Shown here piece after piece: positions 50,411-63,480 of a stretch of DNA of 64,000 bases (positions are counted from its first letter, which is position 1; the number at the start of each line of letters is the position of its first letter). The position numbers and the translations under genes are program-made. The notes under the pieces are model-generated. The model was given only the letters and a program-made list of their open reading frames with translations. It made no database searches and was not told the origin of the DNA. Source of the stretch: an uncultured Bacteroidales bacterium (GTDB lineage: Bacteria; Bacteroidota; Bacteroidia; Bacteroidales; VadinHA17); contig CAWKJD010000003.1 in the NCBI GenBank assembly GCA_963849945.1, positions 162,811 through 226,810 on the forward strand, written 5' to 3'.

Positions 50411-50417
50411 CTGAGGG

Positions 50418-51391
50418 ATGAGGATCGGGCTCACGTATGACCTTCGTTCGTGGTATCTCGAACGTGGTTATACCATGGATGAAACAGCTGAATTTGACAA
50501 GGAAGAAACAATAGCTGCCCTGGAGGAGGTGCTTGGCCGTCTGGGCTATGAGACCGAACGCATAGGTAATATCTTTGAGCTTGTGGAGAACCTTGCCGCA
50601 GGCAAAAAATGGGATATGGTGTTCAACATCGCTGAAGGTTTATACGGCGATGGCCGTGAGTCAGTTGTGCCTGCTATTCTCGACCAGTACAGGATACCAT
50701 ACGTATTCAGCGGACCGGTGGTGATGGGTGTCTCACTGAATAAATATCTTGCACGCCTGGTGGTTGAAGCTGCCGGTGTGCCGGTGAGCCCGGGCATCAT
50801 AGCCGCAAAAGCCAGTGACATTGAAAATGCCTCATTCTTTCATACCCCCTGTTCGTCAAACCGGTGGCAGAGGGTACCGGCAAAGGCATCACAACAAGAA
50901 GCGTGGTCCATGATCATGATTCGCTTGTGACACTCGTGACGGATCTGCTTGAGAAATATCATCAGGCTGTTCTCATTGAAGAGTACCTGCCGGGAAGAGA
51001 GTTTACTGTCGGAGTTACCGGAAATGACATCGATGTAAAAGTGGTGGGTGGAATGGAAGTTATCTGCAAAGATAACCTGCCCTATTCCGTCGAGGTCAAG
51101 GAGAACTACCAGGATATCGTCAGGTATCTTCCCATTGACGATACTTGCAGACAGGAATGCAACGATGTGGCGTTAGGTGCATGGCATGCCCTTAACGCCG
51201 TGGATGCCTGCCGCGTAGACATGAAGGCTGACAGGAACGGCAGGATCTGCTTTATTGAAGCCAATCCTCTTGCCGGACTAAACCCGATACATTCGGACCT
51301 TCCGATACTGTCACGCCTGAACGGCACAGTATACAATTCCCTCATGGAGATGATAATGAATTCAGCCAGGAAAAGGTACGGACTTGCATAG
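50418..51391 (+). pseudogene. D-alanine--D-alanine ligase-like ATP-grasp enzyme, split by a 1-nt frameshift in a C5 run
   Basis: ORFs 50418..50930 and 50864..51391 are in different frames. One extra C at 50845-50849 would read ...ASFFHTPLFVKPVAEGTGKGI..., the Ddl-type PlfVKP..eGs.Gi motif. Combined length is about 324 aa. Confidence 0.75.
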
Positions 51392-51393
51392 TG

Positions 51394-52356
51394 ATGAAAA
51401 AGTGCCTGATAATATATAATGAGCCTTCTCCTGATGCTCTCCCTGATGAACTTGATGTACTTGACCAGGTAAACTTCATTGAGCGGACCCTGAAGGAACT
51501 TGGCTATGATATATCACGAAAGGGAATCACTGATGACTTCTTCCGTGAAATTCCACAGATAAAAGAAGGAGGTTATGAATTTGTTTTCAACCTGGTTGAA
51601 TTTGTGGGAAACAAGGCTGAGATCCTGTACTTCATTCCGGCACTGCTGAACATGCATCACATACCTTATACCGGGTGCTCAGTCGAAGCTACATTTGTCA
51701 CAAGCAGTAAGGTGCTTGCCCGTAAGATAATGAAATCCAATGACATACCTGTTGCAGGTGGTTATAATGTCTCCGATACGGATAAGCTCATTAAAGGCAA
51801 AAAATACATTCTTAAACCTGTCTGGGAAGATGGTTCGCTGGGCATAACTGAAGAATCCGTTTTTACATTTAACGGCCTCTTACCGGAATTGGTGAGAGAC
51901 AAAAATGACCGCCATTGGTTCATTGAGGAGTTCATTGACGGCCGCGAATTCAACGTGAGTGTCAAGTCAGGTCCCAATGGACCGGAGATGTTTCCTCCTG
52001 CAGAAATGGTCTTCCATGGTTACACTGAAGACATCCCGAGAATTGTAAGCTATAAGGCCAAATGGATCGAAGGGTCATTCCAGTATGAGAACAGCAAACG
52101 TCAATTCCCGGAAGACCTTAGCCCCAGACTGATGAAGAATCTCAGGGATGCCGTGTTTGGTTGCTGGCAAACTTTCGGACTGAAGGGATATGCCCGCGTT
52201 GACATGCGTGTTGATAACGATGAAAATGTTTATGTGCTCGAGGTCAACGCTAATCCGTGCATCTCGCCCGACAGCGGATTTATTTCGGCAGGTGTTCATG
52301 CCGGATATACCTACGCGGATATCATCGGAGATATCATCAAGGACCTCAATAAATAA
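51394..52356 (+). CDS. second D-alanine--D-alanine ligase-like ATP-grasp enzyme
   Basis: ORF 51391..52356 (ATG at 51394); paralogous architecture to the preceding gene (YILKPVWEDGSLGI, EEFIDGREFNVSV, ARVDMRVD...VLEVNANP). Confidence 0.8.
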   Translation: MKKCLIIYNEPSPDALPDELDVLDQVNFIERTLKELGYDISRKGITDDFFREIPQIKEGGYEFVFNLVEFVGNKAEILYFIPALLNMHHIPYTGCSVEATFVTSSKVLARKIMKSNDIPVAGGYNVSDTDKLIKGKKYILKPVWEDGSLGITEESVFTFNGLLPELVRDKNDRHWFIEEFIDGREFNVSVKSGPNGPEMFPPAEMVFHGYTEDIPRIVSYKAKWIEGSFQYENSKRQFPEDLSPRLMKNLRDAVFGCWQTFGLKGYARVDMRVDNDENVYVLEVNANPCISPDSGFISAGVHAGYTYADIIGDIIKDLNK

Positions 52357-52359
52357 CCC

Positions 52360-52839
52360 ATGCCTGAAGTTTCATTTGACATCACCCCTGCTGACAGACC
52401 TGTTCTTGAGAAAATACTTTCATCATCAGGATACTTTTATGATTTTGAAATCGAGGTAGCCCTGTCACTGGCAGACGAGACCTTTGAATTAGGTCAGGAG
52501 AAGAGCGGCTACTACTGGATACGTCTGATCGACGATGGCAGGGTTATAGGCTTTGCAAACTTCGGACCCAATCCTTCCTCTGTCCATTCATGGGAGCTTT
52601 ACTGGATTGCCATTATGGATGAATACAGAAAGAAGCATTATGGATCGGTAATACTCAAGGCAGCAGAGGAGAGGGTCAGGTCACAGGGAGGAAAGGTCTT
52701 CTGGATAGAGACATCAGGCCGGCCTCTTTATGAACCGACGAGATACTTCTATCTGAAAAACGGCTATGAGCTCGAAGCAACACTTCGGGAATTCTATGGA
52801 CCTGATGACGCAAAACTTATTTACAGGAAGGAACTGTGA
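52360..52839 (+). CDS. GNAT-family N-acetyltransferase
   Basis: 159-aa ORF; acetyl-CoA-binding-like segment (IAIMDEYRKKHYGSVILKAAEE), C-terminal YLKNGYE; 3 nt after the ATP-grasp gene. Confidence 0.8.
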   Translation: MPEVSFDITPADRPVLEKILSSSGYFYDFEIEVALSLADETFELGQEKSGYYWIRLIDDGRVIGFANFGPNPSSVHSWELYWIAIMDEYRKKHYGSVILKAAEERVRSQGGKVFWIETSGRPLYEPTRYFYLKNGYELEATLREFYGPDDAKLIYRKEL

Positions 52840-52874
52840 CAGGGTTTTAATCGGTTATTCTTCAGCAAAACTTT

Positions 52875-53537
52875 ATGGATGTCAGGATCGAAGCCGGCTG
52901 GAAAGAGAAGCTCAAAAGCGAATTTGACAGGGAATATTTTATTTCCCTGACACAGTTTGTCAGGGAGGAGTACCGCACAAGACAGGTCTTCCCGCCTGCT
53001 AACAGGATCTTCAATGCGTTTGATCTCTGTCCTTTCGATAAAGTGAAGGTCGTCATTATTGGCCAGGATCCATATCATAACGTCGGGCAGGCTCATGGAT
53101 TATGCTTTTCAGTCACTGACGGAACTGAATTCCCTCCAAGCCTTATTAATATTTTCAAGGAGCTGCAGAGAGATCTGGGCATTCCTATGCCCCGCTCCGG
53201 AAATCTTGAGCGCTGGGCCAGGCAGGGTGTGCTTCTTCTTAATGCTATCCTTACCGTCAGGGCACATCAGGCTTTGTCTCATGAAAACAAAGGATGGGAA
53301 AGATTTACCGATGCTGCAATCAGTGCATTGAACCGTGACAGGGATAATATAGTCTTTATGCTATGGGGAAGTTATGCCCAGAACAAGGGAGCCTCCATAG
53401 ATCCGTCACGTCATCTTATACTTAAAACAGTGCATCCCTCGCCCCTTTCTGCATCACGCGGCTTCTTCGGGTGCTCGCACTTCAGCAAATGCAATGACTG
53501 GCTGGTGGCAAAAGGACTGGAGCCTGTAGCATGGTGA
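52875..53537 (+). CDS. ung: uracil-DNA glycosylase (family 1)
   Basis: 220-aa ORF; GQDPYH water-activating loop, LLLNAILTV, HPSPLS motifs. Confidence 0.95.
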   Translation: MDVRIEAGWKEKLKSEFDREYFISLTQFVREEYRTRQVFPPANRIFNAFDLCPFDKVKVVIIGQDPYHNVGQAHGLCFSVTDGTEFPPSLINIFKELQRDLGIPMPRSGNLERWARQGVLLLNAILTVRAHQALSHENKGWERFTDAAISALNRDRDNIVFMLWGSYAQNKGASIDPSRHLILKTVHPSPLSASRGFFGCSHFSKCNDWLVAKGLEPVAW

Positions 53538-54707
53538 TCAGGACCGGAGTCCGCGACTTATTACTTCCATTATTTCTTCTCCGGGTTCAAAACCCATTGA
53601 CATCCTGATCAATCCCGGTTCGGGGTACTTAACGCCCCACACTGACTCCACCGGCATCAGAATTGTCCGTGCATCGCCGAGTGTAGGTATCAATCTTATT
53701 TCAGGATAGACTGCTGCAATGAACCTGTCACGTCGCGCCCTCTTTTCATCTTTTGTTTCACCTCTGAGGTCAAAGGTGACAATGGCGCCGTATCCCCTTC
53801 CGCCTGTAAGATCCCTGGCTGCTCTGTGCGTGACATGGGTCTCAAGACCCGGGTAAAGAACACTACTGACCTCTGGTGAAGAATCCAGCACTGCTGCAAC
53901 ACCGGCTGCATTATCGCACTGTTGTCTGAAACGAAGCTGAAACGAAGACAATTGTGTCTGCAGTCTGTAGGCGTCATCTGGCGACAGCATGTGACCCACA
54001 AACTTGCGGTACTCTATTGCGCTCTTCATCAGTATCTTATCATTGCCGCAAATCACACCTGCAGTCAGGTTACCGTGTCCTGACAGATATTTGGTGGCAC
54101 TGTGGATAACGATGTCAGCACCGTCATCAAGCGGCTTCCATAACAGCGGTGTCGCGAAGGTATTATCTATTATAACTCTTGCCCCGTATTTTTTTGCCAG
54201 CTGAATGATCCTCCTTCCTTCAGCAACAATAAGGAGAGGATTGGATATGGTTTCAAAATAAACAAGATCAGGCTTTGTTTCTGTGATTGTTTTCTCGAGC
54301 TGTTCATAATCGTAATCTGCACCCGTTGGTTTGAAGAAGTCGATTTTCAGACCGCGACGTTTCTCGAGCACGCTGGCAATATATGAAAGTGTCCCACCGT
54401 ATATTTCCGAGAAAAAGAGCCACCTGCTTTTTCTGCCGGCTTCCTGGAATATTGACAGTGCGATGTCTATTGCAGCCATACCTGATTGAGCCAGCAGGGC
54501 CCAGTCAGAACCCTCTGTCGTCATTATGGCTTCCTCGGCAGCGACTACGGTAGGGTTACGGTATCTTGAATAGATGTACAGATCAGGTTCTCTTTCATGA
54601 TCAGTCTCAGCTGCAAATGCGTCAGATGTTTTTCCGGCATCAGGCAGCTCAAAGCCGGCATCACGATATACCGGGGTTCTTGCGCTGTTTATCTCTTTCC
54701 TTTTCAT
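53538..54707 (-). CDS. Cys/Met-metabolism PLP-dependent enzyme (cystathionine gamma-synthase / methionine gamma-lyase family)
   Basis: 389-aa ORF; YSRYRNPT, HSATKYLSGHG pyridoxal-Lys motif; start overlaps the upstream FeS/membrane gene by 47 nt. Confidence 0.8.
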   Translation of the reverse strand: MKRKEINSARTPVYRDAGFELPDAGKTSDAFAAETDHEREPDLYIYSRYRNPTVVAAEEAIMTTEGSDWALLAQSGMAAIDIALSIFQEAGRKSRWLFFSEIYGGTLSYIASVLEKRRGLKIDFFKPTGADYDYEQLEKTITETKPDLVYFETISNPLLIVAEGRRIIQLAKKYGARVIIDNTFATPLLWKPLDDGADIVIHSATKYLSGHGNLTAGVICGNDKILMKSAIEYRKFVGHMLSPDDAYRLQTQLSSFQLRFRQQCDNAAGVAAVLDSSPEVSSVLYPGLETHVTHRAARDLTGGRGYGAIVTFDLRGETKDEKRARRDRFIAAVYPEIRLIPTLGDARTILMPVESVWGVKYPEPGLIRMSMGFEPGEEIMEVISRGLRS

Positions 54708-56001
54708 ATTCTTGATAAAAATGTTCAGAAATTGTTTCTTTTAAATTGACCGGGTGGAAGTCGTCGAAAAATAACGCTCTGTCGGCAGCAACACCGGCAA
54801 AAAACACTATTTCCGCAACGAGGGTGGTGACCTCGCTGCCCGGGTAAAGCAGGAGAAAAACAAGGGGAATTGAAAGAGCCCTGAAATAATAGATTAATTG
54901 GATAAGTCGGCCCTTTTCAGCTGACCTGTATCTGATTATAACGGAGATGGCAGCCAGCAGGGAGAAGACGAGAAAAATAGTTTCAGGCACAATGAACCAT
55001 GTGGCTATGAATGTACCGGAAAAGAATGCCTGACCGCTGTGCAGTTTAAGGGCTGCCGATTTGTCCGTGGTAAAATAAACCATATCAACAGAAATCAGGG
55101 CCAACAGTGCAGTGATGGCCAGCATAAAAAGGTGTATCATCCCCGGCCTGAGCCAGTTCAGATAAGCGAGGACGGTCAGGAACATCACTATTACTATTTC
55201 ACGGCTCAATGGTGATGAGGTGACATTCAGGACGGCTCTCCATGCGCGGGTACGCAGGCCGAGATGAGAGAAGGAAATAATCAGAGCACCTGTAAGCATG
55301 ATGACAGGAACTACTCTTGACGCACCAGTGTCTGATATGGCAGTTGCAATGAACAGAGCCGATGCTGCAATAACAAGAAGCGAGAAGACCAGCAGGCTCC
55401 ACTCTCTGAAAAGTTTTGTAACAGGCACCGGGTAACTGTTTTCTTCTTCTCCCGGTTCCTCTGGAGGAGGCAAAATAATGGGTCCTGACATTTCTGCCAT
55501 ACCAATGAGATTAACTGAAGGTCTTATTCCGGTATCGGGGAACCAATCTGCTCCGGCAGCAGGAAAAACGTCAAGTTCCGTCACCCTGAGTGCACCCGTG
55601 GGACAGGCCGTGACGCATGCAGGTTCAATTCCCTCAGCAGCCCTCCCGGTGCAAAAATGGCATTTCTCGATAAGCCCCTTTTCTTCATTTATTTTTGGCG
55701 CATCATACGGGCATCGCCATGTACAGTAGCTGCAACCCATACATCTCTCCTGATGATGTATAACCCCGCCTGTGCTGTCAACGGTGTAAGCTTTTGCCGG
55801 GCATCCTTCAAGGCAGGCTGGTTTCTCACAGTGGTTGCAGGCCAGTGAGAGATTAATTACCCTGAGGAGAGACAACGCTTCACTGTTCCAGGAATAAATA
55901 TTCCTTGTCCCGGATTGAAAACCGTTTTCGAGCATGCATGCAGCGTTGCAGGCCCTGCAGTCGACACAAAGTGCGGCATCAAATTCAAATCCTCTTCTCA
56001 T
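54661..56001 (-). CDS. fusion of a 4x[4Fe-4S] ferredoxin-type subunit with a polytopic membrane anchor (DmsB/PsrB-like plus DmsC/NrfD-like)
   Basis: 446-aa ORF; four Cys clusters (CVDCRACNAAC, CNHCEKPACLEGCP, CMGCSYCTWRCP, CHFCTGR...CVTACP) followed by about 8 TM segments. Confidence 0.75.
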   Translation of the reverse strand: MRRGFEFDAALCVDCRACNAACMLENGFQSGTRNIYSWNSEALSLLRVINLSLACNHCEKPACLEGCPAKAYTVDSTGGVIHHQERCMGCSYCTWRCPYDAPKINEEKGLIEKCHFCTGRAAEGIEPACVTACPTGALRVTELDVFPAAGADWFPDTGIRPSVNLIGMAEMSGPIILPPPEEPGEEENSYPVPVTKLFREWSLLVFSLLVIAASALFIATAISDTGASRVVPVIMLTGALIISFSHLGLRTRAWRAVLNVTSSPLSREIVIVMFLTVLAYLNWLRPGMIHLFMLAITALLALISVDMVYFTTDKSAALKLHSGQAFFSGTFIATWFIVPETIFLVFSLLAAISVIIRYRSAEKGRLIQLIYYFRALSIPLVFLLLYPGSEVTTLVAEIVFFAGVAADRALFFDDFHPVNLKETISEHFYQEYEKERDKQRKNPGIS

Positions 56002-58040
56002 AATGCTTTTTCGACTCCTGCCCTTGTATTGTGAAAGGCTGCTCCATGGCCCATATCCGTTTCTGCTGGTGTGATAAGGGCGTTCACTCCTCCCCCTTCG
56101 TTAAGCCAGACACCGTTTGGAAAGACAATGCTGCCGCTGCGTACCCGTGCTGTGATTTTCACTTTTCCCCTGACCACGTCGTTGGAATTGAAAACCCTTA
56201 TAAAGTCCCCATTCTTTAAGCCCAGCTTACGGGCGTCAGCAACGGAGATCTCCCACGCAGGCTGATCCGTTACGCTTCGTATTATCTCAAGGTTACCGAA
56301 CTGTGAATGAATGCGGGAAGCATCACATGGCGTCATAAGCCTGAAAGGCAGATGCGCATCCTTGAAATCGTCAGGAGGATCATAAGCAGGCAGCGGAGAG
56401 ACTCCCCACAGCTTAACAGCAGTGTCGGACCACAGTTCTATCTTTCCGGACTCGGTGCTGAATTTCCTGTCACTGTAAGCCAGCTCTTCTGTCTGCTGAG
56501 GAATACGGGGAGCCTCTTTCAACTGTTGGAGGGAGCAGCCGTCGGTATCTCCAACGCGATCAGAAAGCCATTTGTTATATTCCTGAGGTGCAGGTATGCC
56601 GGAGGTTCCGGTGACATTCAATCCCATCTTGCCGGCAAGACGGAAATAGATCTCGCTTTCCGGCATTACTTCACCCGGACAGTCAATCAAAGCAGGTTTG
56701 TACTGCACATAAGGATTCCAGTAAGAGCTTATAACATCAGCCTGTTCAAACATTCCCTTTGCCGGAAGTATGATATCAGCCAGGGCAGCGGTATCTGTCA
56801 GGAACTGGTCAATGACCACTTTGAAAGGAATTGCTTTCAAAGCCCTGATCACTTCGCTGCTGCCGGGGAGCTGTGTGACAGGATTACCTCTTTCGATCCA
56901 TGCCACCTCGATACCAGGATCCTTAAGAGCAAAGAAATCTTTTGCGAACGTGGCTATTGACAAAGCTCTCCTGAAAGGCTTATCCTGCTCATCATCGGGA
57001 TAGTAGCTCAGTGGTTCACTGGTCTTGTCAAATATATAGCTCTGCAGGTTGGCAAAGCTGAAGCCACATCCTTCCCGGCCGATCTTCCCGGTGATGACAG
57101 GGATAGCAAGCAACGAGCGAATAGTCTGACCGCCGTTAGTGTACCTCTGCAGGCCATAACCAGCTACTATGGTCACCCTCTCTGTCTGCCCGATCATAAC
57201 CGCAAGCTCTTCTATCATGCTGGCCGGAATGCCCGTGATCTTTTCAGCTTCAGCCGGAGTAATTTTAAGAGAAGCTGCAAACTTCTCATAACCGGAGACA
57301 TACTTCTTTATGAAGTCTGTGTCAGTCAATCCCCTTTCAATTATCACCTTTGCGATCGCTAGGGCCAGGGCGGCATCCGTTCCGGGTTTCGGGCTTAACA
57401 AAATGTCTGCCTTATCGGCAGTAGGTGTCCTTCGCGGATCAATGACAATCACTTTTGCGCCGTTTTTCCTTGCCCTGTCAACAAAGATCATCTCCTGAAC
57501 ATTTGTTTCAGCAGAGTTTTTTCCCCAGATGATCACCAGCTGAGCATTGGCTAGATCCCATGGCACATTATGTTTTACCTCACCCAGTGTCAGCCTCACT
57601 GCTTCGAGTCCGGCCGGCCAGCAAAGATTTCCGTAAGTGGTTGTTGCACCGCCGAAAAGTTTCCAGAAATTCACGGAGATATCGTTGCTTAAACCAGAGT
57701 ATCCGCTTCCCTTATAAAAGAGAACTGAATGAGGACCGTAATTCGTCCTGGCATTAATCAGTTTTTCAGAGATGGTGTCCAGTGCCTCTTCGCGGCTTAT
57801 ACGTATAAAAGTGCCGTCGATACCACGCTTAAGAGGATAAAGTATCCGGTTTGGTGAGAATTCGCGTTCAATATATGAGAGGCCCTTGATACACGGTCCT
57901 TCAGGGGTTGCCAGGTTGCCTTTGTAAGGCAGGATGCGCTTTACCTTCCCCTCTTCGGTGAATACCCTGAATGAACAGGTGCTGTAACAGTTACGCGGAC
58001 AAACAGTGACAAATTCCTTCATCAGGGAACAACTTTTCAA
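55998..58040 (-). CDS. molybdopterin (bis-MGD) oxidoreductase catalytic subunit without a Tat signal
   Basis: 680-aa ORF; N-terminal CPRNCYSTC FeS0 motif right at the start (no RRxF leader), molybdopterin-binding and C-terminal beta-barrel domains; ATGA overlap with the FeS gene. Confidence 0.8.
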   Translation of the reverse strand: MKSCSLMKEFVTVCPRNCYSTCSFRVFTEEGKVKRILPYKGNLATPEGPCIKGLSYIEREFSPNRILYPLKRGIDGTFIRISREEALDTISEKLINARTNYGPHSVLFYKGSGYSGLSNDISVNFWKLFGGATTTYGNLCWPAGLEAVRLTLGEVKHNVPWDLANAQLVIIWGKNSAETNVQEMIFVDRARKNGAKVIVIDPRRTPTADKADILLSPKPGTDAALALAIAKVIIERGLTDTDFIKKYVSGYEKFAASLKITPAEAEKITGIPASMIEELAVMIGQTERVTIVAGYGLQRYTNGGQTIRSLLAIPVITGKIGREGCGFSFANLQSYIFDKTSEPLSYYPDDEQDKPFRRALSIATFAKDFFALKDPGIEVAWIERGNPVTQLPGSSEVIRALKAIPFKVVIDQFLTDTAALADIILPAKGMFEQADVISSYWNPYVQYKPALIDCPGEVMPESEIYFRLAGKMGLNVTGTSGIPAPQEYNKWLSDRVGDTDGCSLQQLKEAPRIPQQTEELAYSDRKFSTESGKIELWSDTAVKLWGVSPLPAYDPPDDFKDAHLPFRLMTPCDASRIHSQFGNLEIIRSVTDQPAWEISVADARKLGLKNGDFIRVFNSNDVVRGKVKITARVRSGSIVFPNGVWLNEGGGVNALITPAETDMGHGAAFHNTRAGVEKAL

Positions 58041-58096
58041 TAGTGGAACCGGTGTGTAAAATCAGGAAGAAAAGGTACAAAAAATGTGTTAGCCGG

Positions 58097-58855
58097 CTAA
58101 ATTTTTTCCATGCAATCGCCTCTTATCCATCCCTTATTGCCGTCAGGCAGCTGTACATTAAGGTAATCGCCGAGTTCTTCTTCAATTTTTACGGTCGTTC
58201 CGGAATGAATGACAAAAAGCTCGCTGCCGCTTTCGCCCGGTTCGCTTCTGCCGGTTGCAATGCTGCATGTGACAATAGCCCTGCTGTTATGATTTATGAG
58301 AGAGTTATTTCGGACAGCCAGTGAAACAAGGAGTACTGAAAATACAAGGGCAATAACGGAAACCCAGAATGAAAGAAGCCTGCCGCCTGACCTGGCTTTT
58401 GTCAGAAAGACCACTGCAAACACCAGCGAAGTGATGAAAAGCAGCAGAGAGGCGATAGCCCATGTATTTGTTTTAGTCAGCAGCGAAAGGAAATCAAACC
58501 ATCTCACAAAAAACAACTGGGGGACGGTTTCAAACTTATCGCTGATTCGGCTTCGTGCGATCTGGAGGTTATAGCTGATATCCTCATCTGCTGGAGAAAT
58601 AAGCCTGGCGCGTTCATAAAAGAGTATGGCAGAGGCATTGTCTCCGGACTTGAAGAAAGCGTTCCCGGCATTGTACAGCAGGTCTTCACTCCTGTACCCG
58701 TCGTCGTAAAGCTTCCTGTAAACAGCAGCAGCACCGGAGTAATCGCCTGAGCTGTAAAGTTTTCCTGCTTCGGCATACTTCTCATCAGGCGTTTGAGCCG
58801 CTGTCTCCAGCAGGCAGATGATCAATAGTGTGCAAATAATAATAATTCTCCTCAT
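58097..58855 (-). CDS. batE: BatE-like protein (TPR plus C-terminal SH3b)
   Basis: 252-aa ORF; signal peptide, TPR repeats, 2 TM, C-terminal SH3-like (GDYLNVQLPDGNKGWI); last gene of a Bat-type operon. Confidence 0.7.
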   Translation of the reverse strand: MRRIIIICTLLIICLLETAAQTPDEKYAEAGKLYSSGDYSGAAAVYRKLYDDGYRSEDLLYNAGNAFFKSGDNASAILFYERARLISPADEDISYNLQIARSRISDKFETVPQLFFVRWFDFLSLLTKTNTWAIASLLLFITSLVFAVVFLTKARSGGRLLSFWVSVIALVFSVLLVSLAVRNNSLINHNSRAIVTCSIATGRSEPGESGSELFVIHSGTTVKIEEELGDYLNVQLPDGNKGWIRGDCMEKI

Positions 58856-58867
58856 CTGCTGTGTGTT

Positions 58868-60700
58868 TTAGTCCAGTACATTATCCAGTTTTCCGATCAG
58901 GGCAGATGTTCTCCTGTACAAGCCGTCTGGGCTCTCTCCTTCCGCCGAGCGTGAATAGCGTGAAAACTCAGTAGCAGAAAGGACAAGATCAAGTTCAGTG
59001 ATAAGTTCCTCTTCCACATTATGTGACCTGAGGGCGGTGTAGCACTTGTCTTTTGTGAGGTCTGACAGCGGAATAGCCAGTTTATCACCCAGGTATCCCC
59101 AGAGAGCTCCTGCCAGCTCGGCATTAACCATCTCCGGTTTACCGGCATCAAGATGCGAACGGGCTTTTGAAAGTCTTTTACGGGCATTCTTTGAAGCCCT
59201 GCGATTTCGCAGTCCTGTTATATCGGCATTGCGTTTCAGCTTCTCGCGCCTCAGCAGCAGAACCGTAGCAGTCAGAAACAGCGCAAGGACGAACCAGAGC
59301 CAGTAGTATGTTTTGGACACCAGAGGTGAAGCCACGAGCTCAAGCCTGCTCCTTCCATTCCTTATAAACCTGATATCCTGTCCGAGATATTTGACATCTC
59401 CGCCGGGGGTATAGACAGGAGCTGTGGTTTCTCCTGTACCGGTAGTACCCGTTACCTTTATCGTATATCCCTTTGCACGAAGCGTAACGTATTTTTCTTT
59501 TTCGGCATCGAAGACTGTATATGAAACAGGAGGAAGGTCAAAGGTGCCTGTATTCCGCGGTATGAGAAGAAACTCAAATGTTTTCGTGCCTGAAGCCGTG
59601 CCTGAGCTTTTGACCGTCACTTTCGGGTCATATTTTTCAATTCCCTGAGGGAAATTGATGACCGGTTCTCCGGCGAGGTTAAGATTTCCGGTACCACTGA
59701 GCGTTAAAGTATAAGTAACTGCATCATTAACTTCGATATCTGTCTTTGAGAGCGAGGAAGACAGCTCAAAAGTTCCTACTGCACCGTGAAAGTCGGCTGG
59801 CTTAGGTTCCGGGAGAGGCCTGACCCTTATGACCGCCGGCTGTGTTGAGACCATGCGTGGCACGGTGGTTACGCTGTTAAAGAAATTGTCAAAGAAGGGA
59901 TCATTGAAAAAGTTATCATTGACGTTGTTACGCTCCTGGACAAGGGCAGTGATCTGCACGGGATCGATGCGTATTTCGCCGGAGACCTGAGGATAAAGGA
60001 CAAACCGCTGCAATACACCGGTGCCATACTGAACGCCATCAATAACCTCAGACTCCAGGTTTGTCAACTGTGGCGTCTCAATATCTTCACGAAGAAATCC
60101 CTTGAAATCAGGATACTTCAGGTCGTTAATACCTGAAAGATTAATGCGGGTAAAGAGCTTGAGCGTTACCGTGACGGGCTGACCTACATATACCTCTCTT
60201 GTACCGAGAAGCAGACGCAGAGATATTTCCGAGCCTGCTGCCGGGGCTTGCTTCCCCTGCTGAGTGCTTTGTGTGCCTTGTGTACTCTGTGCCGGTGCGG
60301 CACCCTCGCTTGTAATCTCTATCTCCGCAGGCAGGGAGCTGACTGTAATTTTTTTTGTTTCATACCGGGCAGAAGGAATTGTATACCTGCCGGGCGTTGA
60401 AGCGGTTACATAATAGACAAGCGTGGTTGTCGATACAGAAGATACCTCTCCGTTGATCCACTGTACATTATGGCTCGATGACGACTGCGGGCCTGAAACA
60501 GTGAATGACGGGTCAAAAACAGGAGGCTGAAACCGGCCGTCGGTTGAATTGACGGTATAGACTATCCTGAATCGTTCACCGGCAACTGCACTCCCCGGCG
60601 CGTCAACTTTAAGGGTAATCTCCTGAGCAGCAAGAGTGAGTGCCGTCAGCAGATAAACCATAGTCAGCAAAAAGCTTTTCATTGCCGCCAAAATTACCAA
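58868..60700 (-). CDS. batD: BatD-like oxygen-tolerance protein
   Basis: 610-aa ORF; signal peptide, large beta-rich ectodomain, single TM near residue 455, cytoplasmic helical tail; operon position. Confidence 0.7.
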   Translation of the reverse strand: MVILAAMKSFLLTMVYLLTALTLAAQEITLKVDAPGSAVAGERFRIVYTVNSTDGRFQPPVFDPSFTVSGPQSSSSHNVQWINGEVSSVSTTTLVYYVTASTPGRYTIPSARYETKKITVSSLPAEIEITSEGAAPAQSTQGTQSTQQGKQAPAAGSEISLRLLLGTREVYVGQPVTVTLKLFTRINLSGINDLKYPDFKGFLREDIETPQLTNLESEVIDGVQYGTGVLQRFVLYPQVSGEIRIDPVQITALVQERNNVNDNFFNDPFFDNFFNSVTTVPRMVSTQPAVIRVRPLPEPKPADFHGAVGTFELSSSLSKTDIEVNDAVTYTLTLSGTGNLNLAGEPVINFPQGIEKYDPKVTVKSSGTASGTKTFEFLLIPRNTGTFDLPPVSYTVFDAEKEKYVTLRAKGYTIKVTGTTGTGETTAPVYTPGGDVKYLGQDIRFIRNGRSRLELVASPLVSKTYYWLWFVLALFLTATVLLLRREKLKRNADITGLRNRRASKNARKRLSKARSHLDAGKPEMVNAELAGALWGYLGDKLAIPLSDLTKDKCYTALRSHNVEEELITELDLVLSATEFSRYSRSAEGESPDGLYRRTSALIGKLDNVLD

Positions 60701-61428
60701 TTTTTAATAACCTTTACTTTGACCCTCGCAGCTTTGTCTTTCTGCACTTTTTCCTGTGTATCCTTTTCGTTAGCCGCAAGAGCATCCAGCAGGCGCTTTG
60801 CATCTTCGCGGCTTATAGAAGGCTGTTGCTGATCCTGCCCCTTCTGATTTTGCTGATCCTGCTGCTGCTGCTGCTGATTCTGTTGATCATCCTTCTGTTT
60901 CTGGTTATCTTTATTCTCATCCTTCTTGTTTTCGTCCTGCTTCTGGTCTTTCTTCTGATCCTGTTTCTGCTGTTGTTCCTGTTTCTTCAGCTGATCCTGG
61001 GCATAAGCAAGATTATACTTTGCCTCAACATTACCGGGATCGAGCTTAAGCGAATTAATGTAAGCCTTTATGCTTTCATCAAACTTCTGGTCTTTCAATA
61101 ACGAATTCCCGAGGTTATAAAAACTTTGTGCCTGCTTCATCGAATCTGCCTCACTGCCTTGGGATGTCCTCATAAATTCATTTGCAGCCTCGCTGAACCT
61201 GCCCTGTTTATAAAGTGCATCGCCAAGGTTAAAGCCCGAATCGTATGTCGATCTTTCCTGTGCCTGTGCACGGCGGTACATTCCCTCGCTCCCGGTATAC
61301 TCGCTCTTTTTGTACAACCTGTTACCCTTTCTTATGTACTCTTTCTCCTGCTGTCCCATTAAAGTGGAATGCAGCAGTAACAGGCATGCTGCAGTGAAAA
61401 CAATTTTATTTATGCTCAATACTGTCAT
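60694..61428 (-). CDS. batC: BatC-like TPR protein with Q/K/D-rich low-complexity tail
   Basis: 244-aa ORF; TPR repeats then KKQEQQQKQDQKKDQKQDENKKDEN...QQQQQQDQQNQKGQDQQQ. Confidence 0.7.
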   Translation of the reverse strand: MTVLSINKIVFTAACLLLLHSTLMGQQEKEYIRKGNRLYKKSEYTGSEGMYRRAQAQERSTYDSGFNLGDALYKQGRFSEAANEFMRTSQGSEADSMKQAQSFYNLGNSLLKDQKFDESIKAYINSLKLDPGNVEAKYNLAYAQDQLKKQEQQQKQDQKKDQKQDENKKDENKDNQKQKDDQQNQQQQQQDQQNQKGQDQQQPSISREDAKRLLDALAANEKDTQEKVQKDKAARVKVKVIKNW

Positions 61429-62480
61429 GACCGTTGATTTTTTACCCGGGCTTCAATTATTCCCAATCGTCTCAATATATGATTATTACGATCAGTAAGC
61501 AAGACATCCAGAACCAGCAGAATGAACATAATAGCAGCCGGTATCAGGAACTGATCATTATATTCAGTGTACATAACAGTGTCGGCCTCCGACTTCTTCA
61601 TGCGGCCAATATCATTATAGATCTCATTTAGACCCAGGCTTGTGTTGTTTGCTCTTACATACCTTCCTCCGGTTGCTGAAGCTATTTCCTGCAGTCCCTT
61701 CTCATCGAGTTTTGATATCACAGTATTTCCATCCCGGTCTTTCAGATAATCGCTACCGCTGCCGGCTTTCAACGGGATTGGAGATCCGTCAGGTGAACCG
61801 ATACCTATAGTGTGTATCACAATTCCTTTTTCGGCAGCAGCCCTGGCAGCTTCCATGGCATTGTCCTCATGGTTTTCACCGTCAGTGATTATTATCAGTG
61901 CCCTGCTTTTATCGCTTTCCGGTGAGAATGATCTGATACCAAGATTAATAGCTGCTCCGATAGCTGTACCCTGTTTTGAAATGGCATCCGGTCCTGCTGA
62001 TTCCAGAAACATCTTTGCCGAGAGGTAGTCATTGGTGACAGGAATCTGTGTATATGCATCACCTGCGAAAAGAATAAGCCCGATCCTGTCATCCCGCAGC
62101 TGGTCGACGAGTTGTGCTATAGCCTGTTTGGCCCTTTCCAGTCTTGAAGGGGTGATATCTGTCGCCAGCATCGAGTTGCTGACGTCAAGGGCGATTATGA
62201 CCTCGACCCCCTCACGTTTGACCTGCTCGAGCCTTGATCCGAACTGCGGTCTGGCGACTGCAAGCACGGCAAAGACCAGAGCCAGCAATCTTAAGAAGAA
62301 CTTAACCGTCAGCCTGCCTGGTGAATAGTCAGGCGACAGTCTCTTCACAAGCTCAGGTTCGCCAAAGCGCTCCCGTGCAGCCCTTCTTCTCCTGTTCCCC
62401 ATGATCCATATTATAATGAGCACCGGTACCAGGAGGAGCAGGTAGAGCATATCAGGCTGAGCAAATCTGAACGTTTCCAT
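61425..62480 (-). CDS. batB: BatB-like von Willebrand factor A protein
   Basis: 351-aa ORF; 2 N-terminal TM, VWA domain with MIDAS (ALDVSNSM), C-terminal TM. Confidence 0.8.
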   Translation of the reverse strand: METFRFAQPDMLYLLLLVPVLIIIWIMGNRRRRAARERFGEPELVKRLSPDYSPGRLTVKFFLRLLALVFAVLAVARPQFGSRLEQVKREGVEVIIALDVSNSMLATDITPSRLERAKQAIAQLVDQLRDDRIGLILFAGDAYTQIPVTNDYLSAKMFLESAGPDAISKQGTAIGAAINLGIRSFSPESDKSRALIIITDGENHEDNAMEAARAAAEKGIVIHTIGIGSPDGSPIPLKAGSGSDYLKDRDGNTVISKLDEKGLQEIASATGGRYVRANNTSLGLNEIYNDIGRMKKSEADTVMYTEYNDQFLIPAAIMFILLVLDVLLTDRNNHILRRLGIIEARVKNQRS

Positions 62481-62487
62481 CGCTACA

Positions 62488-63480
62488 CTATGACAAGTTT
62501 CTCATAAACAGATACCTGAGAAGCAACTCAAGACAAAGTATAATGGCAGCAGCCAGAGCCCATGGCATGAATACTTCCTCACGCTTGCTGTGTTCCCTTG
62601 TTTCTATTTTTGATTTTTCGAGTTTATCTATTTCACTGTACACCTTCACCAGGCTTGTGTTGTCGACAGCCCTGAAATATTGTCCTCCGGTGAGGTCAGC
62701 AATCTTTCTGAGGAGCGCCTCGTCAATCTCGACCTGCATTTTCTGGTACTGAATGCCGAAAGGGGTCTGGACGGGGTAATCTGCATATCCCATGCTTCCT
62801 ACGCCGATGGTATATACCCTGATGCCGAATGTCTTTGCTATCTCAGCGGCAGTTACAGGGTCGATAGACCCCCTGTTGTTAACCCCGTCAGTCAGCAGGA
62901 TTATAACTTTGCTTATGGCATCAGAATCTTTTATCCTGTTGATGGCAGTTGCCAGGCCCACTCCGATTGCCGTGCCGTCTTCAATGATGCCGCTTTTCAC
63001 TTCCCTGAGAAGGTTGATCAGCACTGCATGATCAGTCGTCAGCGGGCACTCTGTGAAACTCTCCCCGCTGAATACCGTCAGTCCGATACGGTCATAAGGC
63101 CTTCCGCTGATAAACTCAGTAGCCACATTTTTGGAAGCTTCGAGCCTGTCGGGACTGAAGTCCCGCGCAAGCATGCTGCCTGAAACATCCAGAGCCATTA
63201 CTATATCTATACCCTCAGTGGTTGAGCTCTGCCATTTGTCAACGTTCTGCGGGCGTGCGATCACAATAATTACGAGAGCAATTACCGCCAGCCTCATAGC
63301 AAAAAGAAAATGACGGAGCCAGTGACGGAAGGTCTTCCTTCCACCCTGTAAGAAACTGGCCGTGGAGAGCTTTATGGCAGCATGAGACTTGCCCTGGCGA
63401 TATATATAGTACGCCAGAAGGAGAGGTATAATAAGGAGGAACCAGAGAAACCATCCATTCTCAAAGACGATGTTATGCAT
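62488..63480 (-). CDS. batA: BatA-like von Willebrand factor A protein
   Basis: 330-aa ORF; 2 N-terminal TM, VWA domain with MIDAS (ALDVSGSM), C-terminal TM. Confidence 0.8.
   Translation of the reverse strand: MHNIVFENGWFLWFLLIIPLLLAYYIYRQGKSHAAIKLSTASFLQGGRKTFRHWLRHFLFAMRLAVIALVIIVIARPQNVDKWQSSTTEGIDIVMALDVSGSMLARDFSPDRLEASKNVATEFISGRPYDRIGLTVFSGESFTECPLTTDHAVLINLLREVKSGIIEDGTAIGVGLATAINRIKDSDAISKVIILLTDGVNNRGSIDPVTAAEIAKTFGIRVYTIGVGSMGYADYPVQTPFGIQYQKMQVEIDEALLRKIADLTGGQYFRAVDNTSLVKVYSEIDKLEKSKIETREHSKREEVFMPWALAAAIILCLELLLRYLFMRNLS

Follow-up and report, generated by a model that had tools for sequence, protein, structure and literature searches.

A three-gene operon for a predicted inward-facing molybdenum enzyme, a fused iron-sulfur/membrane-anchor protein and a sulfur-amino-acid enzyme in an uncultured Bacteroidales bacterium

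The window, a 64,000-nucleotide stretch of DNA from an uncultured Bacteroidales bacterium, contains three overlapping minus-strand open reading frames, which encode a molybdenum-enzyme catalytic subunit (here MoA), a fused iron-sulfur/anchor protein and a pyridoxal phosphate (PLP) enzyme (Table 1). Both overlaps named in the preliminary description of this DNA were read directly, and both recur in related genomes. The 4-nt overlap between the catalytic and fused-subunit genes is also present in almost every relative with at least 67% identity, and the 47-nt overlap between the fused-subunit and PLP genes measures 20-59 nt in more distant clade members; the fused-subunit tail EYEKERDKQR..GIS is kept only where the overlap with the PLP gene exists. 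The locus is thereby confirmed as a three-gene operon for a predicted inward-facing Mo enzyme, a protein that joins the FeS wire to the membrane anchor, and a sulfur-amino-acid enzyme. Upstream, on the same strand, lie five Bacteroides aerotolerance-type genes, for which the Pfam labels BatA, VWA, BatD, TPR and SH3 were recorded in a relative with 98% identity (L172). These genes precede the Mo genes in 80/80 genome loci of the window's own clade and are not found there in the sister clade. In the 74-nt gap that follows batE, sigma-70 and terminator scans gave nothing above chance and no Rfam family matched; the gap may hold an internal promoter, or the operon may be transcribed by read-through from the Bat operon.

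Table 1. Positions of the operon's genes, motifs and upstream neighbours in the window
Feature	Position	Strand	Evidence
PLP enzyme, Cys/Met-metabolism family, 389 aa	53538..54707	(-)	PF01053 (Cys_Met_Meta_PP) 247.8 bits
PLP lysine K206	54090-54092	(-)	motif SATKY
47-nt dual-coded overlap, fused-subunit tail/PLP gene start	54661..54707	(-)	read directly
Fused electron-transfer and anchor subunit, 446 aa	54661..56001	(-)	ORF and translation
DmsC/PsrC-type anchor, residues 193-414, 8 TM helices (predicted)	54760..55425	(-)	AF2 model, Foldseek, PF04976 in orthologues
Ferredoxin domain, residues 1-145, DmsB/PsrB-like, four [4Fe-4S]	55567..56001	(-)	Fer4_11, TIGR02951, PsrB
ATGA stop/start overlap, catalytic gene/fused-subunit gene	55998..56001	(-)	read directly
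Catalytic subunit MoA, 674 aa, Mo/W-bisPGD oxidoreductase without signal peptide	55998..58022	(-)	PF04879, PF00384, PF01568
Cys134, predicted Mo/W ligand of MoA, in invariant motif YGNLCWPAGLEAVRLT	57621..57623	(-)	alignment with FdhH, PsrA, DmsA
FS0 [4Fe-4S] motif of MoA, C8-x3-C12-x3-C16-x27-C44	57891..58001	(-)	codons checked; cysteines invariant
Gap of 74 nt, batE to catalytic gene	58023..58096	(-)	sequence read
batA, batB, batC, batD, batE (Bacteroides aerotolerance-type)	58097..63480	(-), as the operon	ORFs; Pfam labels via relative L172

MoA carries the Molybdop_Fe4S4 (PF04879), Molybdopterin (PF00384) and Molydop_binding (PF01568) domains. We placed its start at ATG 58022 (674 aa) rather than TTG 58040 (680 aa) because all homologues begin M-(K/E/R)-E-F-x-T-x-CPRNCYSTC, a pattern assessed over more than 120 catalytic-subunit sequences. 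An in-frame stop lies 16 codons 5' of this ATG, so a hidden Tat leader is impossible; with the conserved N-terminus, this upholds the earlier claim that MoA lacks a twin-arginine leader and leaves no upstream start from which a Tat signal could be read. Cys134, the predicted metal ligand, aligns with Sec140 of FdhH, Cys173 of PsrA and Ser176 of DmsA (S205 of the precursor), and the following Trp135 occupies the position of FdhH His141. A Cys ligand is also found in Psr, Phs and Ttr.

MoA reached no NCBIfam family at the curated cut-off, the best being TIGR02166 (dmsA_ynfE; 285 bits versus 777.7). In a tree in which the characterised clades were DmsA/Ynf, BisC, Nap/Nas, FdhF/YdeP, PhsA and NarG, it fell outside every one of them, which answers the question of placement raised in the preliminary description for the clades that could be included. 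It is instead one of a large group of Tat-less proteins, 640-700 aa in length and uncharacterised, with zero characterised members among the matches listed. The DmsA/Ynf and BisC clade was supported in 194/200 bootstraps, and the whole Tat-less group joined it in only 46/200. All catalytic subunits with a fused partner, from Bacteroidales, Melioribacteraceae and KSB1, form one clade (200/200), and the Acidobacteria relatives have B and C as separate genes. The predicted inward-facing Mo enzyme represents a widespread yet unstudied version of a familiar class of respiratory enzyme.

The fusion of the ferredoxin and anchor subunits is genuine, as had been claimed: the transmembrane part matches DmsC (PF04976), its best structural match is PsrC, and eight transmembrane helices are predicted. 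It is not peculiar to this locus, and marks the whole Bacteroidales/Melioribacteraceae/KSB1 clade among the lineages sampled; length and architecture were identical in all matches listed (at least 120 homologues). The ferredoxin domain scored 79.6 bits with Fer4_11 and 111.8 bits with TIGR02951 (DmsB), the latter under the model cut-off, and its best PDB match was PsrB (2vpw_B, 1.3e-20). Sixteen invariant cysteines fall into four groups (residues 12-22, 55-67, 87-97 and 114-133), corresponding to four [4Fe-4S] clusters. In the AF2 model the eight anchor helices have a pLDDT of 70-90 and the ferredoxin domain is poorly modelled (<35); a Foldseek search with the anchor model gave PsrC (2vpw_C) as the top match and ActC at rank 5. 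PF04976 scored 34-37 bits in sister-clade orthologues (cut-off 22.3) and 17.5 bits in the window protein. The anchor also contains an invariant S-x-x-HLG motif, whose S243 and H246 may make up a quinone site facing the cytoplasm. The N-terminus, which is conserved in at least 120 fused-subunit homologues, starts MRRGF; this was considered as a Tat signal and rejected, as many orthologues have MRKGF and the motif for the first cluster already starts at residue 12.

The K+R count of the anchor loops is 10.7 on the ferredoxin side versus 1.2 on the other side, and Tat and Sec signals are absent from both redox proteins in all of more than 200 homologues. By the positive-inside rule, the ferredoxin domain is predicted to lie in the cytoplasm, and MoA would then lie there too, in agreement with the cytoplasmic facing first proposed. 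A periplasmic complex, reached by signal-less export or concealed by a wrong topology prediction, would make this an ordinary DmsABC/PsrABC-type respiratory reductase. The orientation is a prediction, and the partners of DmsC and PsrC anchors usually lie in the periplasm (PMC8076601). We nevertheless regard that arrangement as highly improbable, given the missing export signals, the loop charges beside a ferredoxin domain that is covalently joined to TM1, and an operon with no gene for a TorD/DmsD-type chaperone.

Among known systems, the closest architecture is that of the sulfite:quinone oxidoreductase SoeABC of Allochromatium vinosum and Aquifex aeolicus, the only cytoplasm-facing complex in a review of the NrfD family, where SoeC is taken as inverted (PMC8076601). 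SoeABC likewise combines a Mo-bisPGD subunit, a four-cluster ferredoxin and a haem-free NrfD/DmsC-type anchor of eight transmembrane helices, its A and B subunits are Tat-less, and both the peripheral subunits and the quinone site are assigned to the inner, cytoplasmic side of the membrane (PMC8076601). The likeness is one of architecture, and the present system differs in having B and C in one polypeptide, a much smaller catalytic subunit and a PLP enzyme in the operon. With DmsABC/YnfEFGH, the E. coli DMSO and selenate reductases, it shares the gene order A-B-C, the C-x3-C-x3-C spacing of FS0 (CTVNCGSRC in DmsA), a DmsB-like ferredoxin and a DmsC-like anchor, and DmsA is the best full-length match of MoA among annotated enzymes (28% identity over residues 6-672). 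It differs from them in lacking a Tat leader and a DmsD/TorD gene, in its Cys rather than Ser ligand, in the B-C fusion, and in the sub-threshold score and separate clade of MoA. The polysulfide and thiosulfate reductases PsrABC/PhsABC share the Cys ligand and provide the best ferredoxin and anchor matches, and sulfur chemistry is plausible here from gene context; however, they are periplasmic, with a Tat leader and a C-x2-C-x3-C spacing of FS0, and MoA scored 184 bits with PhsA (cut-off 694) and grouped with it in only 12/200 bootstraps. FdhF-type cytoplasmic formate dehydrogenases, which are Tat-less and of similar size, were the best-scoring solved structures (E-values of about 1e-52), but the Sec/Cys-His pair and Arg333 of FdhH are replaced by Cys-Trp and Asn in MoA, and FdhF does not come with a membrane anchor subunit of this kind.

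The third gene, as proposed earlier, encodes a member of the Cys/Met PLP family with its lysine K206, and it is a divergent one. With the cystathionine gamma-synthases, gamma-lyases and beta-lyases, methionine gamma-lyases (MGL) and O-acylhomoserine sulfhydrylases of PF01053, it shares the fold, the PLP lysine, the phosphate-binding motif Y-x-Y-S-R-x-x-N-P-T, YGGT and the C-terminal carboxylate-binding Arg in LIRMSMGFE. It is only about 30% identical to any solved member (CGL, CBL or MGL), about as close to the MGLs as to the others, and reached no NCBIfam equivalog at cut-off (best 240 bits versus 477). Its C-terminal active-site loop is shorter and altered, with TLGDARTILMPVESVWG in place of SLGGxESLxxxPxxMTH, and the subfamily is marked by the signature LIPTLGDxxTILMPxExVWGxKYPxPG, which orthologous PLP genes also carry.

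Co-conservation of all three genes, which the preliminary description proposed to test, holds only in part. The conserved core is the catalytic subunit with its fused partner, whose genes adjoin in nearly all loci with room for both in the window's own clade, the sister clade, Melioribacteraceae and KSB1. The PLP gene adjoins the Mo genes in all of the roughly 73 assessable own-clade loci; it was found within 5-7 kb of them in none of about 20 sister-clade loci (most of that clade), nor near them in any Melioribacteraceae, KSB1, Atribacteria or Acidobacteria locus examined. The Mo enzyme can therefore do without the PLP gene. Elsewhere in the sister clade the PLP gene occurs in two other orders, PLP-BC-x-A (L090-092, L094, L099, L100 and L159) and 3 kb downstream (L095).

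In two Acidobacteria genomes, a CysPTWA-type sulfate/thiosulfate importer lies directly upstream of the unfused A-B-C genes, in one of them with an Rrf2 regulator as well, and MetH lies within three genes of the homologues in four Acidobacteria loci. These neighbours point weakly to sulfur chemistry, of which the Cys ligand shared with Psr, Phs and Ttr is a further hint. Acidobacteria neighbourhoods of this kind may reflect lineage synteny rather than functional linkage.

On balance, we think it probable that the product of the locus is a complex iron-sulfur molybdoenzyme of two polypeptides, bound to the membrane with its redox subunits on the cytoplasmic side. Electrons would be exchanged between menaquinone and a soluble substrate in the cytoplasm. 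Their route would run along the four [4Fe-4S] clusters in the ferredoxin domain, within the same fused polypeptide, and the FS0 cluster of MoA (C8, C12, C16 and C44) to a bisPGD centre with Mo or W, whose ligand would be Cys134; the coupling to quinone is suggested by the homology of the fused subunit to DmsC and PsrC. The PLP enzyme, translationally coupled through the 47-nt overlap, would handle a small sulfur metabolite in the step just before or just after that of the Mo enzyme, a functional link to which gene order points. With the quinone site and the active site both on the cytoplasmic side and no haem, such a complex would build no proton gradient by a redox loop, and if this geometry holds, its role is most likely assimilation, detoxification or electron feed to the quinone pool rather than that of a classical terminal reductase.

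Which substrate is used, and in which direction electrons flow, is a matter of guesswork. Our tentative suggestion, which may well be wrong, is the cytoplasmic reduction of a sulfane-sulfur or thiosulfate-type compound by an inward-facing Psr/Phs-like enzyme, with the released sulfide fixed by a PLP sulfhydrylase into homocysteine or cysteine. Reduction of thiosulfate or polysulfide by menaquinol is thermodynamically uphill, which counts against it. The preliminary description had raised the metabolism of an oxidised sulfur amino acid, such as a sulfoxide; the Mo enzyme would then be a cytoplasmic, quinol-linked reductase of methionine sulfoxide or S-methylcysteine sulfoxide, with a PLP enzyme such as methionine gamma-lyase degrading or converting the reduced amino acid. 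We consider this distinctly unlikely, even though the FS0 spacing, the best annotated match and the top NCBIfam model all lead to DmsA, the PLP enzyme is about as near to methionine gamma-lyases as to its other relatives, the operon stands at the end of a Bat aerotolerance cluster, and a glutathione peroxidase gene adjoins the unit in L115, L120 and L121 and lies between the Mo and PLP genes in L095. All characterised S- and N-oxide reductases of the superfamily, to our knowledge, use a Ser ligand, whereas MoA has Cys134 where DmsA has Ser176; MoA also falls outside the DmsA/Ynf and BisC clades, the PLP enzyme carries YGGT where methionine gamma-lyase typically has YGCT, and synteny with the Bat genes is limited to a single clade.

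A SoeABC-like dehydrogenase, which would oxidise cytoplasmic sulfite, or sulfide to polysulfide, and pass electrons to menaquinone and on to fumarate reductase or cytochrome bd, after a PLP desulfhydrase or desulfinase had freed the compound from a sulfur amino acid, also seems unlikely. Many PLP-family enzymes release H2S, and menaquinone can oxidise sulfite or sulfide in an energetically downhill reaction, which would suit a design unable to translocate charge. The absence of Tat leaders on A and B and the inverted NrfD-type anchor fit the description of SoeABC as well (PMC8076601). Against this, an importer of sulfate or thiosulfate in Acidobacteria fits the use of an imported oxyanion better than the production of sulfate. 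MoA is a protein of 75 kDa, against about 109 kDa, which we take to be the size of SoeA. It is rather unlikely, too, that compact gene packing has kept a functionally unrelated PLP gene beside the others and that the substrate of the Mo enzyme is not a sulfur compound (but, for example, nitrate, arsenate, selenate, chlorate or an organic molecule). The A and BC genes occur without the PLP gene in most lineages, the other neighbours are housekeeping genes (Ddl, PFK, FtsY, UDG and an ABC-2 transporter), the wider Tat-less group offers no characterised member among its matches, and Bat and UDG genes are as conserved in the own clade as the PLP gene, so own-clade synteny proves little. Yet the dual-coded overlap is maintained, sulfur-related neighbours appear independently in another phylum, the Acidobacteria, and orthologous PLP genes still adjoin the BC gene in the order PLP-BC-x-A, where the catalytic gene is separated.

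Three consecutive open reading frames on the minus strand encode the catalytic subunit A (gene 1), its fused ferredoxin-anchor partner BC (gene 2) and a PLP enzyme (gene 3), and the overlaps that the preliminary description had reported between them, an ATGA stop/start and one of 47 nt, are both present where it had placed them. The end of gene 3 lies one base away from the stop codon of the uracil-DNA glycosylase (UDG) gene that converges on it, and the base composition of the operon equals that of the remaining window. The open reading frame of gene 1, previously listed from a TTG at 58040, stands, but its start moves to the ATG at 58022, because homologues all begin at this methionine (M-(K/E/R)-E-F-x-T-x-CPRNCYSTC); the resulting protein has 674 aa and begins 7 residues before its first cluster cysteine. 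An in-frame stop lies 16 codons 5′ of this ATG, with no arginine pair in between; therefore, shifting the start recovers no Tat leader, and this stop and the conserved N-termini rule out a hidden one. The absence of a Tat leader that had been claimed for the enzyme thus withstood a check of the upstream start codon. An Rfam gathering scan of the whole window returned two tRNAs only and nothing in the operon region, and on this result a riboswitch or leader RNA 5′ of the operon was rejected; scans of 52800-59000 for sigma-70 promoters and intrinsic terminators gave nothing above shuffled expectation, Bacteroidota promoters being outside the coverage of the tool.

Coordinates of features in the window and in loci of relatives (L-numbers, gene loci in relatives' genomes)
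Feature	Location	Coordinates	Strand
Operon, three consecutive open reading frames	window	53538-58022	-
ATGA stop/start overlap, gene 1/gene 2	window	56001-55998	-
47-nt overlap, gene 2 (446 aa)/gene 3 (389 aa)	window	54661-54707	-
Two overlapping open reading frames (170 aa, 175 aa), ATP-grasp	window	50418-51391	+
Intact ATP-grasp gene (324 aa)	L172	16632-17606	
KamA-type aminomutase cluster	window	49166-52839	+
DnaE2-like and ImuB/IMS-family genes	window	3002-7130	-
PBP_like_2-cytochrome c gene	L165	9444-11096	
PBP_like_2-cytochrome c gene	L168	10710-12296	
PBP_like_2-cytochrome c gene	L169	10554-12155	
PBP_like_2-cytochrome c gene	L170	10437-12017	
Small lipoprotein gene	L005	5579-5998	
Small lipoprotein gene	L013	5594-5980	
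Small lipoprotein gene	L028	5577-5993	
Three tandem SiaC-family genes	L081	10531-11753	
Glutathione peroxidase, DUF5698/DUF2179 and small PAS protein genes	L115	5137-6820	

The catalytic subunit matched PF00384 (139 bits), PF01568 (66.6 bits) and PF04879 (30 bits), all above their cut-offs, and these three domains, together with a metal-ligand residue at the conserved position, place it in the Mo/W-bisPGD (DMSO reductase) superfamily. It reached no curated NCBIfam cut-off, its highest scores being those against the dmsA_ynfE and Fdh-alpha models given below. Proteins of this system are automatically annotated as 'molybdopterin-dependent oxidoreductase', 'anaerobic selenocysteine-containing dehydrogenase' and '4Fe-4S binding protein'. 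The FS0 motif, C8-x3-C12-x3-C16-x27-C44, has the same C-x3-C-x3-C spacing as that of E. coli DmsA. Because the invariant Cys134, in the invariant motif YGNLCWPAGLEAVRLT, aligns with FdhH Sec140, PsrA Cys173 and DmsA Ser176 (precursor residue 205), it is predicted to be the metal ligand. We take the catalytic subunit and its partner to be a working enzyme, since the cofactor-binding residues are intact and invariant. The Cys ligand is shared with PsrA and PhsA, from which the enzyme differs in its score against the PhsA model NF012032 (184 bits against a cut-off of 694), its lack of a Tat leader and its rare grouping with PhsA in the tree described below. From DmsA/YnfE it differs in its score (TIGR02166, dmsA_ynfE, 285.1 against 777.7 bits), in having Cys134 rather than a Ser ligand, in lacking a Tat leader and in falling outside their clade. 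Formate dehydrogenases gave the best E-values among solved structures; despite this, identity as a formate dehydrogenase was ruled out, because FdhH His141 and Arg333, on which formate dehydrogenases depend, are replaced by Trp135 and Asn325, both invariant in homologues, and the enzyme also differs from FdhF in scoring 278.8 bits against the 666 of the Fdh-alpha model (TIGR01591).

We placed the catalytic subunit in a neighbour-joining tree of 50 sequences (666 columns, Kimura distances, 200 bootstraps) with references from public records for DmsA, Ynf-type A, BisC, another S/N-oxide reductase, NapA, an assimilatory-type nitrate reductase, FdhF, YdeP, PhsA and NarG; SoeA, TtrA, ArrA and the Thermus and Wolinella PsrA are not among its sequences. 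The closest relatives, which share the Bat/UDG synteny of the window (own clade), and the next branch out (sister clade) were each recovered in 200/200 bootstraps. Catalytic subunits with a fused partner formed one clade, also in 200/200, indicating that the B-C fusion probably arose once. The Tat-less enzymes of 640-700 aa grouped together in 155/200, outside every reference clade in the tree, and the sister of this group was the Nap/Fdh group in 79/200, the Dms group in 46/200 and PhsA in 12/200. DmsA and Ynf grouped in 200/200, and these with BisC in 194/200, in both cases without the window enzyme, whose identity to the annotated references was 18-28%. The placement that the preliminary description had proposed as a check therefore puts the enzyme in none of the reference clades tested.

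The partner had been described as an FeS subunit and a membrane anchor in one polypeptide, and both parts were recovered. Its DmsB/PsrB-like ferredoxin domain (Fer4_11, 79.6 bits; TIGR02951, 111.8 bits, under the equivalog cut-off of 214) carries 16 invariant cysteines in four groups, corresponding to four [4Fe-4S] clusters, and is joined by an acidic, proline-rich linker to a hydrophobic domain. A hydropathy scan found 7-8 hydrophobic segments in the fused subunit, and its AlphaFold (AF2) model has eight TM helices with a pLDDT of 70-90; the ferredoxin part of the model (pLDDT <35) is unreliable and unusable for docking geometry. The top structural match of the model was PsrC of polysulfide reductase (2vpw_C; E 1.9e-3, TM-score 0.57 on target), with ActC of alternative complex III at rank 5. 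The Pfam DmsC model (PF04976) matched the window protein weakly (17.5 bits, E 0.003; cut-off 22.3) and the sister-clade orthologues at 34-37 bits, above that cut-off, and precomputed DmsC matches exist for many homologues.

No export signal was found on either redox protein. The fused subunit begins with MRRGF, which we do not read as a Tat motif: many orthologues have MRKGF, and the first cluster motif follows directly. In 28 orthologues, with helix boundaries taken from the AF2 model, K+R counts averaged 10.7 in the ferredoxin-side loops versus 1.2 on the other side, and by the positive-inside rule this excess predicts a cytoplasmic ferredoxin domain and, with it, a cytoplasmic catalytic subunit. 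The topology check, like the lack of export signals, thus favours the earlier claim that the enzyme faces the cytoplasm, as a predicted orientation. DmsC and PsrC have their N-terminus on the B-subunit side; since B is fused to the N-terminus of C, the usual docking geometry would be kept and the whole complex would be inverted in the membrane.

Gene 3 encodes a member of the Cys/Met-metabolism PLP family (PF01053, 247.8 bits) with ~30% identity to solved members, whose PLP lysine aligns with K206 in SATKY; the phosphate-binding YxYSRxxNPT motif and the carboxylate-binding Arg in LIRMSMGFE are also present. The enzyme has YGGT where methionine gamma-lyase (MGL) has YGCT, and its C-terminal active-site loop is shorter and altered, the altered motif being common to all orthologues examined. 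Among 45 NCBIfam models, none reached the cut-off for a named reaction type (CGS, CGL, CBL, MGL or OAH/OSH sulfhydrylase), the best score being 240 versus 477 bits.

Homologues of the catalytic subunit number thousands, and the nearest 120 listed (669-708 aa) all come from Bacteroidales MAGs. Scanning one genome per GTDB species gave at least 542 relatives confirmed by the CPRNCYST or TPEGPCIK motif, and the best 80 of these (54-83% identity) were compared as own-clade loci; they are labelled Bacteroidales, Bacteroidetes/Bacteroidota, Rikenellaceae/Rikenella or Marinilabiliaceae, with one exception, Chloroflexota. The fused-subunit gene lies 3′ of the catalytic gene wherever the contig allows, and the PLP gene comes next in every locus with room (~73 of the 80). 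The closer half of these loci keep the 4-nt and 47-nt overlaps; in the more distant half, the B and PLP genes overlap by 20-59 nt. To reach the sister clade (46-53% identity), we seeded a metagenome scan with P0241, the nearest representative at 50% clustering (P-numbers denote homologous proteins). Here the Bat and UDG neighbours are absent, and nearly all loci with room again have a fused ferredoxin-DmsC gene after the catalytic gene. No PLP gene was present within 5-7 kb in ~20 sister-clade loci; PLP orthologues occur in the order PLP-BC-x-A in L090-092, L094, L099, L100 and L159, where x is a coiled-coil envelope protein, and, in L095, 3 kb 3′ of the Mo genes.

Profile searches and gene-context look-ups extended the comparison to more distant relatives. 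Melioribacteraceae and KSB1 have A and a fused BC without a PLP gene; in Acidobacteria and two unassigned lineages, A, B (~194 aa) and DmsC (~270-300 aa) are encoded separately, again without a PLP gene; and an Atribacteria locus has the catalytic subunit only. In a plasmid database, no relative exceeded 32% identity. On the basis of these gene sets across own, sister and distant relatives, A + B + C is the conserved functional core, the B-C fusion is a derived state, and the PLP gene, an accessory, has become fixed in one Bacteroidales clade, with rearranged occurrences in part of the sister clade. Conservation of the three genes as a unit, which the preliminary description had proposed as a check, accordingly holds within the own clade but does not extend to the ~20 sister-clade loci or to the distant relatives.

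Several further observations were made on these loci. The C-terminal tail of the fused subunit encoded in the 47-nt overlap (EYEKERDKQR..GIS) is near-invariant only in genomes with an overlapping PLP gene and varies among sister-clade members and relatives with an intergenic gap, which looks like constraint from two-frame coding. A gene for a predicted lipoprotein of ~135 aa (signal peptide and Cys) between batE and the catalytic gene in many relatives (L005, L013, L028 and others), in some ending 2-20 nt before the catalytic gene start, was rejected as a member of the unit, as the window lacks it and it matches no Pfam family. Also set aside were the c3 gene directly 5′ of the sister-clade catalytic gene, which encodes a signal-anchored, Lys/Glu/Ala-rich coiled-coil protein judged unrelated, and the 75-aa and ~250-aa proteins upstream in Acidobacteria, lineage-specific proteins without a recorded family assignment. 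Fourteen other sister-clade loci share with L081 three tandem SiaC-family (PF09345) genes of ~130 aa each after the fused-subunit gene, all in one sublineage. In another single sublineage (L115, L120 and L121), genes for glutathione peroxidase, DUF5698/DUF2179 and a small PAS protein lie directly 5′ of the Mo genes; in L095 these genes separate the Mo genes from the PLP gene, and a link to oxidative stress is possible. The distant relatives P0498 (1065 aa) and P0479 (978 aa), whose linker is repetitive and of low complexity, are recorded as catalytic and ferredoxin subunits in one protein, an architecture shared by P0475, P0482, P0488, P0492 and P0496; either true A-B fusions or read-through in gene calling would account for them.

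By homology, electrons would travel between a quinone site in the DmsC-type domain and the Mo/W centre by way of the four clusters and FS0. With both ends of this path facing the cytoplasm, as predicted, and no haem, there would be no charge-separating redox loop, which suggests an assimilatory or detoxifying reductase or a Soe-like electron-input dehydrogenase. We lean towards a sulfur compound as the substrate because of the Cys ligand, the PLP association, the CysPTWA importer and the MetH neighbours. A Cys ligand is that of Psr, Phs and Ttr, and the known S- and N-oxide reductases all have Ser. A CysPTWA-type sulfate/thiosulfate importer, identified by its binding protein, its pair of permeases and the CysA C-terminal domain of its ATPase, lies directly 5′ of unfused homologues in two separate Acidobacteria genomes, one of which also has an Rrf2 regulator, and MetH is at most three genes away in four Acidobacteria loci. 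A Mo/W-type ABC transporter downstream of the Acidobacteria operons fits a metal-dependent enzyme. In Acidobacteria, DmsC is followed by a gene for a PBP_like_2 solute-binding protein that is fused with a cytochrome c domain, which is unusual for the binding protein of a tungstate- or molybdate-type transporter, and then by permease and ATPase genes.

Our working model, held tentatively, is that an inward-facing reductase would act on thiosulfate or a sulfane-sulfur compound and that the PLP enzyme would fix the sulfide. It is somewhat more doubtful that the substrate is a non-sulfur compound and the PLP gene a mere neighbour. In favour of this, own-clade synteny alone proves little, because the batD-batE and UDG flanks are as conserved as the PLP gene there; against it, a Cys/Met-family PLP enzyme is associated with the Mo genes in three different gene orders. 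A Soe-like dehydrogenase, a reading that we consider improbable, would instead oxidize the sulfite or sulfide that the PLP enzyme releases. The window system shares with SoeABC A and B subunits without a Tat signal, an NrfD-type anchor and, as predicted here, the cytoplasmic side, a likeness in described architecture; no Soe family occurred among the 25 listed of the 27 NCBIfam matches to the catalytic subunit. Least probable of these readings is the sulfoxide reductase hinted at in the preliminary description from the pairing with a sulfur-amino-acid enzyme: Cys134 stands opposite DmsA Ser176, and the window enzyme lies outside the well-supported DmsA/Ynf+BisC clade, the Dms group being joined in a minority of bootstraps.

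A broader reading of the working model, which we regard as unlikely, is that these proteins form a widespread, unrecognized family of cytoplasm-facing, quinone-coupled Mo/W enzymes for sulfur assimilation or sulfur amino-acid turnover; these inward thiosulfate/polysulfide (sulfane-sulfur) reductases would pass sulfide directly to a PLP sulfhydrylase in Bacteroidales and would be fed by the CysPTWA importer in Acidobacteria. If true, this would be a new sulfur route into homocysteine and cysteine in anaerobes. Should the Mo genes truly be linked to the PLP enzyme and to sulfate/thiosulfate import, the reduced-sulfur source of anaerobes without classical sulfate assimilation becomes a testable question.

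Complex iron-sulfur molybdoenzymes with NrfD/DmsC anchors are classically periplasm-facing respiratory enzymes. The window system works like SoeABC in architecture and is built from DmsABC/PsrABC-type parts; in a review of NrfD-type subunits, membrane inversion is given for SoeABC only (PMC8076601). The locus thus points to a second and much larger family with a predicted inward orientation, none of whose members is characterized. Its range takes in Bacteroidales, KSB1, Ignavibacteria-type organisms and Acidobacteria, sampled in soils, fens, sediments and digesters, and in one monophyletic branch electron-transfer subunit and anchor have merged into a single polypeptide. In metagenome surveys of the sulfur and nitrogen cycles, such proteins are likely to be mislabelled as enzymes for polysulfide, DMSO or formate. 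Full-text literature on Tat-less or cytoplasmic Mo enzymes, B-C fusion, the Bacteroidales/PLP link, SoeABC and uncharacterized clades yielded nothing that describes a fused ferredoxin-DmsC subunit, the Tat-less clade or the link to a PLP enzyme. The 'Unk' clade has a Tat-less subgroup with the gene order B-C-A (PMC2500031), and we did not equate it with the window family.

Elsewhere in the window, two overlapping open reading frames represent one ATP-grasp (Ddl-like) gene that is intact in L172, a relative whose Mo catalytic subunit is 98% identical to that of the window; the gene is thus frameshifted in the window, as a pseudogene or through a sequencing error. The surrounding conserved cluster encodes a KamA-type lysine 2,3-aminomutase, two ATP-grasp ligases and a GNAT acetyltransferase, adjoins UDG in many relatives and looks like a pathway to a beta-lysine-derived product, AblA/AblB-like with two added ligases. 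Finally, a gene for a DnaE2-like DNA polymerase III alpha (985 aa) overlaps one of the ImuB/IMS family (395 aa), the usual pair of an error-prone 'mutasome' cassette.
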